Positions 2,917-53,491 of a DNA stretch of 64,000 bases are shown here, piece after piece. The DNA comes from an uncultured Candidatus Rokubacteria bacterium (GTDB lineage: Bacteria; Methylomirabilota; Methylomirabilia; Rokubacteriales; CSP1-6). Below the pieces are notes generated by a model. It did no database searches. It saw only the letters and a list, made by a program, of their open reading frames with translations, and was not told the DNA's origin. The position numbers were made by a program, and so were the translations under genes. The number at the start of each line of letters is the position of its first letter. Within the stretch, counting starts at the first letter, position 1. The stretch spans positions 352,001 to 416,000 of the forward strand of contig CAWBMV010000006.1 in assembly GCA_963789955.1 (NCBI GenBank), given 5' to 3'.

Positions 2917-3147
2917 TCAGCCGAGCGACTTGACGAGCCGGGCGATTTCGCCGGGCTTCGGCGCGCGCCCCGCCTGGCGTCGTGAGAACACCGTGCGGCC
3001 GTCGACGAGCACGGTCAGCTCGCGGAGGCCGCCCCAGCTGATCTTCGCGGCGACCTGGAGCGTCGTCCGGAGCTCGTTGCGGAGGCGTACCGCCTCCCGT
3101 CTCAGATCCAATCAGATGCCGCAGCGCTTGATCTCGATGTTCAACAT
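2917..3147 (-). CDS. Rdx/SelW-family protein, candidate selenoprotein (CxxU, TGA at 3112-3114)
   Basis: MLNIEIKRCGI-TGA-LDLRREAVRL...GGLRELTVLVDGRTVFSRRQAGRAPKPGEI; SECIS-like hairpin at 3081-3097. Confidence 0.8.
3081..3097 (-). promoter_or_regulatory. Bacterial SECIS-like hairpin
   Basis: GGAGGCG-GUA-CGCCUCC; loop starts with GU, 21 nt after the UGA. Confidence 0.7.
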
Positions 3148-47527: not shown

Positions 47528-48394
47528 GCTCGTAGCACTCCGTCGCTCAGCACCGGCTCCCCGCGCCCGTCGACCGCGTCGAACGCGAGCAGGTCGCCCG
47601 CCCGTCCGCGGCCGCGCACCGTGAAGGTCGATGGCATGAACACCAAGCCGGTGAAGCGCACCGAGATCTCCTTGACGCGCGCCGGGTCGCCGCCGAGGTC
47701 TTGCTCGATCACCCGCGACACCGCCAGCGCGAGCGTCGCCGAGCCGTGAAGGATCGGCGCGGTGAGCCCGGCCGATCGGGCGACGGCGATGTCGGTATGG
47801 ATCGGATTCCAGATGCGCGCGCATTCCGAGTAGATGTGTGCCGCTCGGGCCCCGACCGGGACCTCCGCGGTCCAGCGCGTTTCGGTGGAAGCCGGCGGCG
47901 ACGGACGGGCGAGCGGCTCGACCGGCGCGCGGGCTTCGCGCTCGGTCGTGATCCCGCGATAGACCGAGCCGTAGTCGGTCGTCGTCACCGGCCGCCCGTT
48001 CCGGTCCACGGTGGACAAGCCGCGCGACGACGAGCGTGCCGGCGCGGCTCGGCCGCACCAGGATGATCTGCGCGCGCGTCAGCAGACGATCCGCGGTCGA
48101 GGGCAGCCGGTGGATGAGCACGTGATGGGTCGAGTGGACGCCCAGGAGCGCCCACGATTCCTTCACGGCCTTCGAGCGCAGCGCCAGCACGGCCGGCCAC
48201 TCGTAGCAGACCGAGAAGAGCGGGTGGGCCACCGGACCTTCCTCGGCCAAGGTGTCGTAGTAGCGTGGATCGTCCACCCCGAGCGCCGCGGAGTACGCCA
48301 TCATCCAGCGCGCGTCGAGCGAGGTACTCAGCGCGCCGACCTCGGTCCCGGCGACCGTGCCCGGGATCGCGCGAACGCCTTCCCGCCTCGTCAT
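47524..48394 (-). CDS. Double hot-dog MaoC dehydratase, frameshift ~48015
   Basis: N-half AHPLF; C-half WNPIHTD...PILHG. Confidence 0.75.
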
Positions 48395-50274
48395 CGTGCC
48401 CGCGGGAAGTTCATGCAGTCCACGAAGATCTCCTCGAAGTCCGGGTGAGCCGCGAGCGAGACGTGCTCGATCCGTCCCGCGACCGCCTCGGCGCGCGCGC
48501 GCTCCGTCTCGGACACGAGGCAGAGCTGCGCCCCGAGTGAGGCGGCGTTGCCCACGTAGCGGATTCGCTCGCGAGGCAGCGGAGGGATCAGCCCGATCCT
48601 GAGCGCGCTCTCGATCGACACGTAGTTGCCGAAGCCGCCGGCCAGCATCAGCTCGGCGACCGTTTCGGACGGGACGCCGGCGACGTGCTGCAGCATCGTG
48701 ACGCCCGAGGCGATCGCGCCCTTCGCCAGCTGCACCTGGCGCACGTCGTCCTGGGTGAGCACGATCTCTTGTCGCGCGCCGGCTTCGCCGGGCCGGAGCA
48801 CGATGACCTGACGCTCCTCGCCCCGCATCACGATCCGCTCGCCGAGCTTCGGCGGCAGCGAATCGCGGGCATCGACCTGGATCAAGCCGGTCCAGTCGAT
48901 GACACCGCCGTCGAGCAGGCCCGCCAGCAGATCGATGATCCCGGAGCCGCAGATGCCGAGCGCGTCCGCCTCGCCGATGGTGTGGACGTGGATGTCGTCA
49001 TCGACCGTGACCCGATCGATGGCGCCGAGGGCGCCGCGCATGCCGTGGCGGATCTGGGCGCCCTCGAGCGCCGGTCCCGCGGGCGCCGAGCAGGCCCAGA
49101 GCCGCTCGCGCGAGCCCAGCAACACCTCGCCGTTGGTGCCGATGTCGACGGCGATGCGGATCTCGGCGCTCTCGTAGATGCGCGTCGCGAGGGCGACGCC
49201 GACGGCATCGGCGCCGACGAAACCGGCGACGAGCGGCAGCAGACACACGCGCGCCTCCGGCGCCACCTTCAGGAAGAGCTCGCGCGCGGACAGGGTCACC
49301 GCGTGGCGCATCACCGGCGCATAGGGCGCGAGGCCCACGTGCGAGGGATCGATGCCGAGCAGGATGTGGTGCATGCACGTGTTGCCGACGACGACGACCT
49401 TGTAGATCCACTTGGCGAGCACGCCGGAGTCGCGGCAGATCTGCGCGATGTGCTGGTTCAGGAGGCCGACGATCCGCGTGTGGAGCTTCCGCAGATTGCC
49501 GGGATTGAACTGCGCGAAGGCGATGCGCGACATGAGGTCGCCGCCGAAGACCGCCTGCGGATTCAGGCTGGAGACCGACCCGAGCTGCTCGCCCGACTCG
49601 AGCTCGACCAGGGTGGTCACGACGCTCGTCGTGCCGATGTCGATCGCGAGGCCGAACTTCATCGCCGCGGTGTCGCCGCGCTCGACCGAAAGGATCCGCT
49701 GCCGTCCGCCACCCGCCGCGAACGTCGTCACCGTCACGCCCGCCGGATCGTCGCGGAGCGCGGACGGCAACCCCTGGAGCACGGCCGGGCCGACGTCGGC
49801 CGTGGTGAGGCCGACCGCTTCGAGAAGCTGCTCGAGGTCGGAGGTCTGGTGATGCTCTTCGCGCGGCAGGGTGACCTTGACCACCTGCTTGGCGATCCCC
49901 GAATCGAGCGTGACCCGGCCGAGCTCCCGCACGCCCGGCCCGGCGCCGAGGATCTGGAACGCGCGCTCGTCGAGCGGCGGCGCCGGCTGGACGGTGACGG
50001 CTTCGTGGAGCACGCACTGGCAGGCGAGGCGATAGCCCTCGCGGACCAGATCGTCGCCGAGCTGGACCTCGTCCATGATCGTCGGCGGCGGCGGCAGACC
50101 CACCAGGAACTTCACGCGACAGGACGTGCACCGTCCGCGCCCGCCGCAGGTGGCGGTGATATCGACGCCGCCCGCGTGCGCCGCCTTGAGAATCGTGGTG
50201 CCCGGCGCGACCGTCAGCGTCCGGCGCGACGCGGGATCGCGCGGATCGGCGACGAGCGTGAGCGGGACGGCCAT
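48391..50274 (-). CDS. RACo/DUF4445 ASKHA protein with N-terminal 2Fe-2S ferredoxin
   Basis: CGGRGRCTSC...RLAC; AIDIGTT, GDLMSRI, DIGTNGE, GICGSG, LAGGFG, GNAA. Confidence 0.9.
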   Translation of the reverse strand: MAVPLTLVADPRDPASRRTLTVAPGTTILKAAHAGGVDITATCGGRGRCTSCRVKFLVGLPPPPTIMDEVQLGDDLVREGYRLACQCVLHEAVTVQPAPPLDERAFQILGAGPGVRELGRVTLDSGIAKQVVKVTLPREEHHQTSDLEQLLEAVGLTTADVGPAVLQGLPSALRDDPAGVTVTTFAAGGGRQRILSVERGDTAAMKFGLAIDIGTTSVVTTLVELESGEQLGSVSSLNPQAVFGGDLMSRIAFAQFNPGNLRKLHTRIVGLLNQHIAQICRDSGVLAKWIYKVVVVGNTCMHHILLGIDPSHVGLAPYAPVMRHAVTLSARELFLKVAPEARVCLLPLVAGFVGADAVGVALATRIYESAEIRIAVDIGTNGEVLLGSRERLWACSAPAGPALEGAQIRHGMRGALGAIDRVTVDDDIHVHTIGEADALGICGSGIIDLLAGLLDGGVIDWTGLIQVDARDSLPPKLGERIVMRGEERQVIVLRPGEAGARQEIVLTQDDVRQVQLAKGAIASGVTMLQHVAGVPSETVAELMLAGGFGNYVSIESALRIGLIPPLPRERIRYVGNAASLGAQLCLVSETERARAEAVAGRIEHVSLAAHPDFEEIFVDCMNFPRAR

Positions 50275-50305
50275 GGCTCCACATTCTAGTGGTATGCTCG
50301 CGCGC

Positions 50306-50482
50306 ATGGAAATAAGCGTGGAGTCGCTGAGGCGGACGGCCGCCCTCAGTGGGTTCGCCTGGACCGATGCCGAGCTCGAGGCCATCCGTCCCGCGGTCCA
50401 GCGCCTCCTCGAGTCCCTGGAGCAGATGGAGCAGCTGCCGCTCGGCGCCGTCGAGCCGACGACCCAATACCGGGTGCTCTGA
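50306..50482 (+). CDS. Small GatC/AtzG-like amidase partner
   Basis: MEISVESLRRTAALSGFAWTDAELEAIRPAVQRLLESLEQMEQLPLGAVEP; directly precedes amidase. Confidence 0.65.
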   Translation: MEISVESLRRTAALSGFAWTDAELEAIRPAVQRLLESLEQMEQLPLGAVEPTTQYRVL

Positions 50483-50483
50483 G

Positions 50484-51899
50484 GTGAACGATCTTCACTG
50501 GGCGTCCATGGCCGACCTCGGCCGGCTGATCGCGACCAAGCAGGTCTCGCCCGTCGAGGTCGTACGCGCTCATCTCGATCGCATCGCCGCCGTCGACTCG
50601 AAGCTTCGCGCGTTCATCACGGTCTGCGCGGATTCGGCGCTCGAGTCGGCGCGCGCGGCCGAGGCCGATCTCATGGCCGGGCGGGTCGTCGGACGGCTCC
50701 ACGGCGTGCCGTGGGCGCCGAAGGACCTCTACTCGACGCGCGGTGTCCGGACGACCGGCGGCTCGAAGATCCTCGCCGACTCGGTGCCGAGCGAAGACTC
50801 GACGGTCGTGGCGCGGCTGGCGCGCGCCGGCGCCATCCTGCTCGGCAAGCTGAACATGCACGAGTTCGCGTACGGGCCCGAGGGCCTCAACGCGCACTAC
50901 GGCGACGCGCGCAATCCGTGGAGCGCCGACGCCCACCGAATCACGGGGGGCTCGTCCTCGGGGTCCGGAGCCGCGGTCGCCGCCGGGCTCGCGCCCGGAT
51001 CACTCGGCTCCGACACCGGCGGCTCGATCCGGATCCCGGCTTCGCTCTGCGGCATCACCGGACTCAAGCCGACCTACGGCCGCGTGAGTCGCGCCGGCGT
51101 GCTGCCGCTCGCGTGGTCGATGGACCATGTGGGCCCGATGACGCGCTCCGCCCGGGACTGCGCGCTGATGCTGAGCGTGATCGCGGGCTACGATCCGGCC
51201 GACCCGACCACGAGCGTGCTGCCCGTGCCCGACTACGGCGCGGCGCTCACCGGCGACGTGAAGGGGCTCCGGGTGGGGCTGCTGCGCGCGCACTTCACCG
51301 ACCCCGCGGCCGCCGACGTGCGCGCGGCCGTGGAAGCGAGCGCGAAGCAGCTCGAGCAGGCCGGCGCGGTCGTGGACGAGGTCAATCTGACCCAGGTGAT
51401 CCACGTCGCGACCGGCTCCGCGGCGATCGTGGCGTCGGAGGCGCTCGCGTATCACGCGCCGTGGATGCGCTCGCGGCCGCAGGACTACCAGCCCGACGTG
51501 CGCGAGCGCCTCCGGCTGGGCGCCTTCGTCAACGGGGCGCACTACGTCCGCGCCCAGCAGATTCGCGCCCTGGTCACTCGCGAGGTCGACGAGGCGCTCG
51601 CCCGCCGCGATGTGCTGCTGGCGCCGGCGACACCGCTCGTCGCGCCGGTGCTCGGCGAGCGCGAGGCGGCGCTCGGCGACGGCCCGTCGGACGTGCGCGC
51701 GGCGTTGCTGCGCTGCACGCGCCCGTTCAACTTCTCCGGCCACCCCGCGTGCGCGGCGCCGTGCGGGTTCACCGCGGGGGGCCTGCCCATTGGTTTGCAG
51801 ATCGTGGGCCGTCCGTTCGACGAGGCGACGGTGCTTCGCGTCGTCGACGCCTATCAGCGCATGACCGACTGGCATACTCGCCGCCCGCCGGCCGCGTGA
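50484..51899 (+). CDS. Amidase-signature (GatA-like) enzyme
   Basis: [26 protein letters not shown]. Confidence 0.9.
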
Positions 51900-51924: not shown

Positions 51925-52416
51925 ATGAGCGACGCGAACGTGGACGCGCGGCTGGCCGCGCTCGAGTCCAGGCTCGGACGCCTCGAACAGCTTCTGGCGA
52001 CCGTGAACGACAAGCTCGATCGGGCCGCGCCGGGTGTCGACGAGGCGCGTCGCGGGATCCAGGCCTGGGTGACCGAGTACGTGTCGCTGCGCCTGCAGCA
52101 GCTGGTCCCCGAGACGTGCGAGCATCCCGAGCGCGAGGCCGACGAGGCGCTCGTCGCCGAGGGACCCGTGCTGCCCGGCACCCGCATCCGCTGCACGGAC
52201 GAGGTCATCCATCGGCTCGGCCGGATTCCGATTCCGTTCGTGCGGCAGATGGTGGCCGAGAAGGTCGCCGAGACCGCGCGCGCCGAGAAGGTCGGCGTGG
52301 TCGACGTACCCTTCTTCGAGCGCGCCGCCACCTTCTGACAGTGCAAGCTGTCGGGGGAGGATCTCCTGACGTTCGACCACTGGAAGGAGCACGTGCTCGG
52401 AGGACCGCGGCTGTAG
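51925..52416 (+). CDS. Coiled-coil plus PCP_red-like domain protein; candidate selenoprotein (TGA 52336-52338 read through to TAG at 52416)
   Basis: TDEVIHRLGRIPIPFVRQMVAEKVAETARAEKVGVVD resembles PCP_red; 25 further codons in frame with a SECIS-like hairpin. Confidence 0.6.
52339..52382 (+). promoter_or_regulatory. SECIS-like stem-loop
   Basis: Upper stem GUCGGGGGA/UCUCCUGAC with GGA loop starts 11 nt after UGA; lower CAGUG/CACUG pairing. Confidence 0.55.
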
Positions 52417-52694
52417 AGGACGAGCCTGTCCGCATCCCGATCGAGGATGCGCTGGATCTTCATGCCTTCGCGCCACGCGACGTGGCTTCGGTCGTCGCCG
52501 AGTACCTTGACGCCGCGCACGCCAAGGGGTTTGCCGAGGTTCGGCTGATCCACGGTCGCGGGATCGGCGTCCAGCGGAAGATCGTGCAGGGCGTGCTCGC
52601 GCGGCATCCCCTCGTCGCGGGCTACGCCGACGCGCCGCCCGAGCGCGGGGGCGCGGGCGCGACGATCGTTCGCCTCAAGCCTCGCGCGCGCTGA
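52413..52694 (+). CDS. Stand-alone Smr/MutS2 domain protein (start codon uncertain)
   Basis: IEDALDLHAF, LIHGRGIG, GGAGATIV. Confidence 0.85.
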   Translation, partial: VEDEPVRIPIEDALDLHAFAPRDVASVVAEYLDAAHAKGFAEVRLIHGRGIGVQRKIVQGVLARHPLVAGYADAPPERGGAGATIVRLKPRAR

Positions 52695-52714
52695 TCGCTC
52701 GCTCGGCGGAGCGC

Positions 52715-53491
52715 TCAGTCTCGGTCGGCGCGAATCAGGATCTGGCGGTCGTTGAAGGACACGACGGCGTCCCCCGCGAGCCGAAACTCGAAGGCGGCCC
52801 GGCAGCGCTCGGGTGCCCGGCGCACGAAGTCCTCGAGATCGCGCCGCGCCTCGGCCGACATGCGCATCCGGCCGGTCCACTCGTTCCATTCGCGGAGCTT
52901 CCAGATGAGCGAGTCCTCGATGACGGTCAGGCCCGCCGCGCGCAGGAACGCTTTCCACTGCGCGGCCCGGTAGCTGCGCACGTGAGACGGATCGCGGCGC
53001 TTCTCGACCTCGAGAATGAACGCGTTGGCGTCCGCGTCGTCGTGGCCGAGGATGTCCTGCAGCAACAACGAGCCGCCCGGCCGAAGGACGCGGTGGATCT
53101 GACGGACCGCGGCCGCGACGTCGGCGAAATGATGCGCCGCCGTCCGGCAGGTGACGACGTCGAAGGACTCGTCCCGGAAGGGGAGCGCGTCGGCATCCCC
53201 CGCGACGAACTCGATGTTGGCCGCGTTGCGCGTTCGCGCGTGCGTGCGCGCCGCTGTCAGCATCGGCTCGGTGAGGTCGTAGGCGACGACGCGGCGCACG
53301 ATGCCCGCGAAGGCGAGCGCGGTGTGACCGCCGCCGGTCGCGACGTCGAGCACCCGATCGGCACGGCGCGCGGCGCCCCAGGCCAGCAGCCGGTCGAGAT
53401 CTTCGCCGGCCGCGTGCAGGGGACTCGTCACGTACGCCGCCGCGCTGGCGCCGAACTGCGCCTGGACGCGACGCGCCTGCTCCTCGCTCAT
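52715..53491 (-). CDS. Class I SAM-dependent methyltransferase
   Basis: VLDVATGGGH, LPFRDESFD, AAHHF, RDPSHVR. Confidence 0.9.
   Translation of the reverse strand: MSEEQARRVQAQFGASAAAYVTSPLHAAGEDLDRLLAWGAARRADRVLDVATGGGHTALAFAGIVRRVVAYDLTEPMLTAARTHARTRNAANIEFVAGDADALPFRDESFDVVTCRTAAHHFADVAAAVRQIHRVLRPGGSLLLQDILGHDDADANAFILEVEKRRDPSHVRSYRAAQWKAFLRAAGLTVIEDSLIWKLREWNEWTGRMRMSAEARRDLEDFVRRAPERCRAAFEFRLAGDAVVSFNDRQILIRADRD

Follow-up and report, generated by a model that had tools for sequence, protein, structure and literature searches.

The PCP_red domain of DPOR is in contact with the P-loop L protein of that complex. As for bacterial selenoproteins, the model of the bacterial SECIS element (bSECIS) places a stem of 4-16 bp with a loop of 3-9 nt at a distance of 16-37 nt from the UGA, with a G within the first two loop positions (a G first, followed by a G or a U), and a minimum free energy of -7.5 kcal/mol or lower (PMC13188914). 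Nearly all selenoproteins have a Cys homologue, and most of the catalogued Sec-Cys motifs are redox motifs (PMC13188914); in a passage of PMC12013277 on selenoproteins without Cys homologues, the glycine reductase selenoprotein A (GrdA) is the one earlier case mentioned. The gene considered here lies in a window of 64,000 nt (the whole stretch of DNA that was analysed) from an uncultured Candidatus Rokubacteria bacterium, and combines the two subjects, as it is predicted to encode a selenoprotein on a PCP_red-like domain. That it represents a real and new selenoprotein family, presumably decoded by the known mechanism, is strongly supported by the comparison of related loci. The overall reading, in which this selenoprotein belongs to a module of PCP_red, Mrp and AhbD-like radical SAM proteins, is given a probability of roughly 0.6.

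An ATG at 51925 opens a frame of 137 codons closed by a TGA, after which 25 further codons (QCKLSGEDLLTFDHWKEHVLGGPRL) are open up to a TAG, just as the first-pass annotation of this DNA had described. The coordinates of the gene, its parts and its surroundings are collected in Table 1. The G or C found at the third position of 22 of the 25 tail codons, also pointed out in that annotation, was recovered as well.

Table 1. Positions within the window of the candidate selenoprotein gene, its elements and the genes around it
Feature	Position	Strand	Remarks
Full predicted selenoprotein gene	51925..52416	+	163 aa with UGA as Sec
N-terminal coiled-coil helix (3-34) and second helix (38-60)	51931..52104	+	AlphaFold; absent from short orthologues
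Cys65 of the ETCEHP motif	52117..52119	+	common, though missing from short forms and certain divergent ones
Divergent PCP_red-like domain, about residues 85-137	52177..52335	+	Pfam, Foldseek, VIA, hhalign
Cys90, start of the PCP_red-like domain	52192..52194	+	invariant: 154/154 loci, 78/78 aligned proteins
In-frame UGA, predicted Sec138	52336..52338	+	TGA in 153/154 distinct loci, TTA in 1
25-codon read-through tail	52339..52413	+	pN/pS 0.38 in frame
Cys140 of the U-x-C motif	52342..52344	+	present in 154/154 loci
Predicted bacterial SECIS	52350..52370	+	9-bp stem, 3-nt GGA loop, 20 nt past the UGA
Predicted true stop TAG	52414..52416	+	relatives: 82 TAG, 16 TGA, 2 TAA
Stand-alone Smr-domain gene (context)	52413..52694	+	Pfam Smr E 1.6e-20; 107/114 loci
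Upstream amidase gene (context)	50433..51899	+	Pfam Amidase E 3e-124
Unannotated SelW/Rdx-like CxxU gene	about 2930-3147, TGA ~3114	-	7-bp hairpin

Matches to the gene in 61 related genomes comprised 36 strong ones, 35 with one TGA. A first set of 154 loci had the TGA in 152 of them, the two loci with TTA being identical in sequence. The enlarged set, which takes in more distant Methylomirabilota and Poribacteria, also amounted to 154 distinct loci (123 from Methylomirabilota (Rokubacteria) and 31 from Poribacteria), once duplicates and two contig-end fragments (L167 and L170, both with TGA) had been dropped, and all but one of these loci kept the TGA, always with x-Cys behind it and never with a Cys in its place. 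One unpublished genome is among the loci and five are among the genome tallies given below; no conclusion depends on these. The invariable Cys at Sec+2 was encoded alternately by TGC or TGT and separated from the Sec by Gln, Ala or Pro. Since the TGA is fixed while the downstream stop drifts among the three stop codons, the TGA would not be the true stop. Homologues ending in TAA or TAG without the tail were not found among these loci, and neither was a TGG or TGC at the site. At the only exceptional locus (L017, genome G007), TTA (Leu) replaces the TGA, the hairpin and the tail being intact as well as selA, selB and selC; the Leu would stem from a loss of recent date or from an error in the consensus. 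Moreover, one single-member database protein had Trp at the Sec position. A sequencing error as the cause of the TGA was ruled out by the agreement of 153 loci; coverage of the site by the raw DNA run was minimal, and a contig from RNA runs covered 51935-52750 with the UGA unchanged, although such contigs are no proof of transcription. On the evidence of these sequences, the TGA at 52336 is almost certainly a selenocysteine codon.

The 25-codon tail obtained a coding score of +7.1 in its own frame versus -17.7 in the frame of the downstream Smr gene, and of 103 distinct loci, 100 had a tail of precisely this length. The other three comprised a contig end, a locus with one base deleted from a run of Gs and the Poribacteria locus. 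The pairwise pN/pS over the tail in 100 loci (without L085, L127 and L147) was 0.38 in its own frame versus 1.72 and 1.40 in the other two, with a value of 0.42 for the part past the hairpin. The tail is under purifying selection in the Sec frame only. An N-terminal extension of Smr was also considered as the source of this conservation and rejected, as the pN/pS in the Smr frame was 1.7. Regarding its composition, codons 12-20 of the tail were predicted to form a helix with a conserved Trp, while the His at positions 14 and 18 were found in 117 of the 123 Methylomirabilota loci versus 2/31 and 0/31 of the Poribacteria loci. A second tail Cys appeared in only 2 of 154 loci, and two syntenic short orthologues ended 8 residues past the Sec (U-A-C-R-A-Q-x-G-A). 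The resemblance to a degenerate Cys/His metal finger suggested by the first-pass annotation was therefore abandoned, since four conserved tail ligands are absent, the His being lost in Poribacteria and the tail being as short as 8 residues.

The start of the Smr gene is uncertain, with GTA 52413 and GTG 52341 as candidates. No ATG, GTG or TTG was found close to the Smr domain in the window (52399-52415, + strand). The GTA of the Smr frame overlaps the TAG of the selenoprotein gene in 64 of 98 loci, 17 of which are closed to the earlier GTG, and a GGAGG-like motif lies about 9 nt upstream of the GTA in most of the 64. Possibly, this GTA is a non-canonical start, which could couple the translation of Smr to Sec read-through.

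The 9-bp hairpin with a GGA loop that had been noticed downstream of the TGA was confirmed, starting 11 nt after it and pairing 52350-52358 with 52362-52370. Checked against the published bSECIS model, it falls within the bounds for the loop (GGA), the stem (9 bp), the distance from the UGA (20 nt) and the energy (-13.2 kcal/mol). The folding z-scores were -0.77 on 60 nt, -2.3 on 31 nt and -2.9 on 25 nt, the hairpin alone being only modestly unusual, whereas its combination with a coding tail is rare. In particular, when the genome's coding-like gene ends were compared, a coding-scored 25-codon tail coincided with a hairpin of at least 9 bp at 2 of 2331 TGA ends, the site under study having both, and at none of the 1288 TAG or 280 TAA ends. 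Across relatives (alignment A3, without L147, L175, L178 and L179), the six inner pairs were kept in all 76 distinct sequences, and 89.6% of the cells were paired in the true register versus 37-59% in slid registers. Two-sided changes occurred in three of the nine pairs and mostly marked the split between phyla; as they are few and phylum-bound, the covariation is taken as support, not proof. Furthermore, the synonymous sites within the hairpin were frozen, with Asp encoded by GAT in 101 of 102 cases, versus GAC for an upstream Asp in 97 of 102. In Poribacteria the loop is GUU, at the same position relative to the UGA, and the two short orthologues have, about as far from the UGA, a hairpin whose sequence is not the same (z-scores of -3.2 and -0.4). 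No fitting family was found in Rfam, where a single chance snoRNA match was far below the cut-off.

The genome is equipped to decode Sec, as the first-pass annotation had anticipated, with selA, selB, selC and selD all above curated cut-offs. The tRNA-Sec(UCA), of the 8/5 type with G73 and the only UCA tRNA found, appeared together with selA and selB on contig C1, while selD, on contig C6, carries its own C-A-G-U with a similar hairpin. A genome scan returned 32 candidate Sec sites, 19 of which had the UHxP, UGSC, UxxC or CxxU motifs of known families; both U-H-x-P sites had a 3-nt loop at +20, as in the gene under study. The second CxxU gene that had been proposed in the window does exist, with the motif C-G-I-U and a Rdx/SelW-like product, its match to Rdx (E 0.0011, 19.6 bits) being below the cut-off of 22.6. 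Additional candidate Sec sites with hairpins in this genome were C6:85553 (-), C25:9684 (+), C34:114116 (-), C1:621440 (+), C17:50260 (+) and C34:39641 (-), with U-C, two paralogous F-A-P-x-U-A and other motifs that could not be placed in the table of PMC13188914. The Sec machinery is near-universal in both phyla, with selA in 118 of 121 Poribacteria (108 of the 110 bearing the gene) and selB in 214 of 251 Methylomirabilota. Neither selA nor selB was matched in a few fragmented gene-bearing MAGs (G001, G023 and G027), which one missing contig would explain, since the two genes are adjacent.

Two readings without selenocysteine were weighed against these results. If the UGA were the true stop, the protein would end in A-T-F, and the conserved sequence 3′ of it would represent either an RNA element or the first part of Smr, read from the GTG two bases past the TGA. 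Database proteins seem to agree, as among the matches listed 119/120, 16/19 and 119/119 copies stop one residue before the UGA, and such a reading would also suit both the lack of any Cys homologue found and a Smr frame that is open from GTG 52341 in 57 of 99 loci. However, this frame is interrupted or out of register in the other 42 of those 99 loci, Poribacteria keep TGA-Q-C with no Smr nearby, and the TGA has not been swapped for TAA or TAG, unlike the downstream stop. The high pN/pS in the Smr frame, the alternating codons of the Cys at Sec+2, the variable residue before it and the absence of a Rfam family argue in the same direction, and a true stop is considered highly improbable. The UGA could otherwise be read as another residue (Trp or Cys) or under an altered genetic code, for which the Trp protein and the Leu locus might be invoked; the sole UCA tRNA found is nevertheless a canonical tRNA-Sec, the hairpin agrees with the SECIS model, and among 3899 scored gene ends the genome uses TGA more often than any other stop (2331), which leaves this reading with hardly any likelihood. 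Insertion of Sec at the UGA by SelB acting on the intragenic hairpin, as the genomic evidence suggests, is very probable. Thus, the uncatalogued selenoprotein proposed by the first-pass annotation (...ATF-U-Q-C...) is endorsed by the retained TGA, the hairpin, the selection on the tail and the Sec machinery.

The family was found in 110 of 121 Poribacteria genomes and, by strong matches, in 103 of 251 Methylomirabilota genomes. At the protein level, sequences labelled as Tectomicrobia / Entotheonellia, Planctomycetota and Alphaproteobacteria also belong to it, and no relative of the Entotheonellia protein was found in viral contigs. Some shortened members were named 'PCP reductase family protein' by NCBI, and over two thousand database entries would be mis-annotated as a shortened hypothetical or 'PCP reductase family' protein. 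A Cys at the Sec position was found neither in the best 120 of 2552, in 88/88 and in the best 120 of 372 proteins, with fused and longer homologues covered only by the set of 88, nor in the 154 DNA loci; when the tail region was used to look for Cys homologues, the one protein retrieved had Trp. Because no Cys homologue was found, screens based on Cys/Sec pairs would miss the family. It is absent from the 119 families of Table 1 in the 2026 catalogue, which has no PF08369 row (PMC13188914), and NCBIfam release 20 gave no match with E < 0.1 for the protein of the window or < 0.01 for that of Poribacteria, so that the claim that no known Sec family has this architecture holds for both sources. 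Moreover, no paper on the family was found in the literature on PCP_red or on the selenoproteins of Rokubacteria, Methylomirabilota and Poribacteria, which included passages of PMC12013277, PMC13326102 and PMC13745706, and the portions covered of the DPOR papers PMC13474568 and PMC12022308 held no PCP_red passage. By these sources, this is a new family, found in soil and sponge bacteria, on a fold unlisted among prokaryotic selenoproteins. Deng et al. 2026 reportedly screened groundwater MAGs including Methylomirabilota, and could list the gene as a candidate; their method may filter families without Cys homologues.

The predicted product comprises a coiled coil, a divergent PCP_red domain with Cys90 and the U138-x-C140 motif. 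The AlphaFold model (mean pLDDT of 84 and pTM of 0.48) starts with a pair of long helices, from which a loose linker leads to a compact domain spanning residues 85-137; the tail forms a short helix. The match to PF08369 (E 0.0045, 17.4 bits) was below the gathering score of 32.5, while some relatives have a precomputed match to it. The top match in Foldseek was 2kru (probability 1.00, E 0.045, rmsd of 1.1 over 47 columns), which also came first in VIA-align with a Z of 7.4 (rmsd of 4.4, 62 aligned), a value below 8 being only moderate and the next match reaching 6.1; furthermore, hhalign gave 94% to the PCP_red domain of a radical SAM protein. The description of the product as a PCP_red-domain protein in the first-pass annotation thus stands for the fold, and not for the sequence cut-off of Pfam. 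The position of Cys90 is occupied by Trp in ordinary PCP_red domains and by W-T in the neighbouring ones of the module. Syntenic orthologues of about 70 residues have neither the coiled coil nor Cys65 and do without the tail's His and Trp, and the conserved working unit is, as judged from the alignments, a 70-residue core with Cys90, Sec138 and Cys140. Both Cys90 and the link to the module are points beyond the first-pass annotation. A sequence search of the PDB returned coiled-coil noise only, and the ESM Atlas only the family's own hypothetical clusters. A fusion to a GTP cyclohydrolase domain (P0008) was discarded as a probable chimera, since it is known from one sequence only, whose similarity ends ahead of the motif.

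With regard to the gene neighbourhood, the upstream amidase was kept in 102 of 112 Methylomirabilota loci with enough upstream DNA, and an aminotransferase-like gene was the neighbour in five loci; the setting between amidase and Smr says little about function. Divergent from the amidase operon, the window also has a gene (48391-50385, - strand) whose RACo-type product, a reductive activator of corrinoid proteins, has a 2Fe-2S domain. A radical SAM gene was near the selenoprotein gene in none of the 112 Methylomirabilota loci, and in Poribacteria an AhbD-like radical SAM/SPASM-PCP_red gene lay just upstream in all eight long loci. The best models for this radical SAM neighbour were TIGR04545 and TIGR04055 (322 and 302 bits, respectively), and the Mrp neighbour matched PF10609. 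One cluster (genome G251) had genes for a USP / PCP_red / rubredoxin-like protein, the Mrp ATPase and a small PCP_red protein with CxxC pairs, along with CopD-like, DUF420 and chlorite-dismutase-family genes. Downstream of the Poribacteria genes (L226:8959-9752), 29 of 31 loci have a hypothetical gene of 124 aa, and 27 of 31 a gene for a HEAT-repeat protein with CxxC pairs. In the genome under study (G000), the module is on contig C34, after a CtaA gene and a cytochrome c oxidase operon recognized by eye; at C34:546000-560500 (L237), the oxidase-like operon is followed by USP-PCP_red, radical SAM-PCP_red and Mrp genes, several of which seem frameshifted, and the small CxxC / PCP_red gene of the module stands alone on a separate contig (C1:771700-772250, L238). 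At another locus (L169, G051:C288), the gene comes after rhodanese-like, Mrp and NfuA-like ORFs (rhodanese and NfuA by eye) and before a FAD oxidoreductase-like gene.

The gene and a module-type Mrp were found together in 54 of 61 Poribacteria, 44 of them within 15 kb, with neither in the other seven, while the 251 Methylomirabilota comprised 90 genomes with both, 13 with the gene only, 46 with Mrp only and 102 with neither; these counts are not independent, as the genomes are related, carry no P-value, and depend on a line of E 1e-60 for the Mrp chosen after the scores had been seen, by which the frameshifted Mrp of the present genome was scored absent. Of the seven Poribacteria that lack the gene, six retained selA, and whole Sec-using genera such as g37 jointly lacked the gene and the module. 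Since the Sec machinery is near-universal and selA is kept without the gene, the distribution of the gene tracks the module rather than the use of Sec. In family f4, the module Mrp was present in 20 of 21 genomes and the gene in one of 21; such genomes, together with the 46 having Mrp alone, make the gene an accessory. The prediction of a complex between the Poribacteria Mrp dimer and the PCP_red-like core (cut before the Sec) scored 0.00 against a mark of 0.32, and was not counted either way. Overall, the shared domain, the adjacency and the co-occurrence suggest that the gene probably belongs to the PCP_red / Mrp / radical SAM module.

In the proposed mechanism, SelB would bind the hairpin and bring Sec-tRNA(UCA) to the UGA, yielding the 163-aa protein, whose coiled coil probably oligomerises the 70-residue core. 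The shared PCP_red domain would serve as a docking tag, and its contact with the L protein in DPOR suggests docking on Mrp. The nucleophile would be Sec138, which would then form a selenenylsulfide with either Cys140 or Cys90, by which the protein would keep the cluster-binding cysteines of the module or its Fe-S cargo reduced, in organisms building haem for terminal oxidases. The redox chemistry, the partner and the oligomer are plausible, and the odds that the protein is an accessory thiol/selenol redox component of the module are about even.

Other functions were also weighed for the selenoprotein. Cys90, Sec138 and Cys140, joined by Cys65/His67 or by another subunit, could be ligands of a metal ion or of an Fe-S cluster, in which case the protein would be a carrier or scaffold that receives cluster from Mrp and passes it to the radical SAM enzyme. 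Its three invariant chalcogens would be in keeping with such a task, as would the rubredoxin-like domain, the SPASM and the CxxC pairs of the other PCP_red proteins of the module and the gene found behind Mrp in G051 with its NfuA-like and rhodanese-like ORFs; however, since neither Cys65 nor the tail His is indispensable, each chain has just three ligands left. Thiol/selenol redox is favoured over metal or Fe-S carriage because Sec-Cys motifs are mostly redox motifs and only three ligands are constant, and carriage appears rather unlikely. It is also conceivable that the selenoprotein is unrelated to the haem / radical SAM module, their co-occurrence coming from shared ancestry or an aerobic lifestyle. 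The amidase, Smr or aminotransferase-like neighbours in Methylomirabilota and the 46 genomes with the module Mrp but without the gene fit this, but neither the adjacency in Poribacteria, nor the use of the same rare domain, nor the joint absence in Sec-using genera would be expected, and it is judged unlikely. Returning to the preferred reading of a module selenoprotein, a more tentative and rather doubtful extension is that the family is Sec-only and was born when a PCP_red domain was extended past its stop codon, not by Cys-to-Sec replacement, the SECIS having become the coding tail. In uncultured soil and sponge bacteria, it would then contribute a redox or Fe-S transfer step that depends on selenium, as part of an undescribed kit by which haem is matured for terminal oxidases.

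The 70-residue minimal form points to three testable residues and offers a biochemical handle on the PCP_red domain beyond chlorophyll synthesis, while selenium would be tied to haem and oxidase assembly, a plausible role that rests on genomics. Compared with known systems, the locus resembles the bacterial genes read by SelB (E. coli fdhF type) in its in-frame UGA and complete Sec machinery, and the consensus bSECIS in its 3-nt loop opening with G then G or U, 20 nt from the UGA, with a stem of 6-9 bp and an energy below -7.5 kcal/mol. Unlike catalogued bacterial selenoproteins, its product has no family match and no thioredoxin fold, and no Cys homologue was found. The U-x-C spacing is shared with the thioredoxin-like Sec.2 (PF13192) and the Cu/Zn efflux transporter SO_0444 (NF033936), whose folds are unrelated and whose models are not matched by the Sec138 protein; GrdA, with its CxxU, has no relation to it in sequence or context. 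As for the module, the Poribacteria radical SAM neighbour resembles both AhbD and NirJ2, below the equivalog cut-off of 500 and with a PCP_red domain of its own, and the neighbouring Mrp resembles the Mrp/ApbC carriers in its PF10609 match, below the equivalog cut-off of 450 (MrpORP); in the portions of the literature covered, no selenoprotein partner was described for AhbD / NirJ2 or Mrp/ApbC. Finally, the domain has the same three-helix fold with a small beta-bridge as the PCP_red (PF08369) of the BchB/ChlB subunit of DPOR (2kru) and the stand-alone Asr4154 (2l09), and differs from DPOR PCP_red in having no link to chlorophyll synthesis and from PF08369 domains in its score below the cut-off, a Cys in place of the leading Trp, the N-terminal coiled coil and the U-x-C extension.
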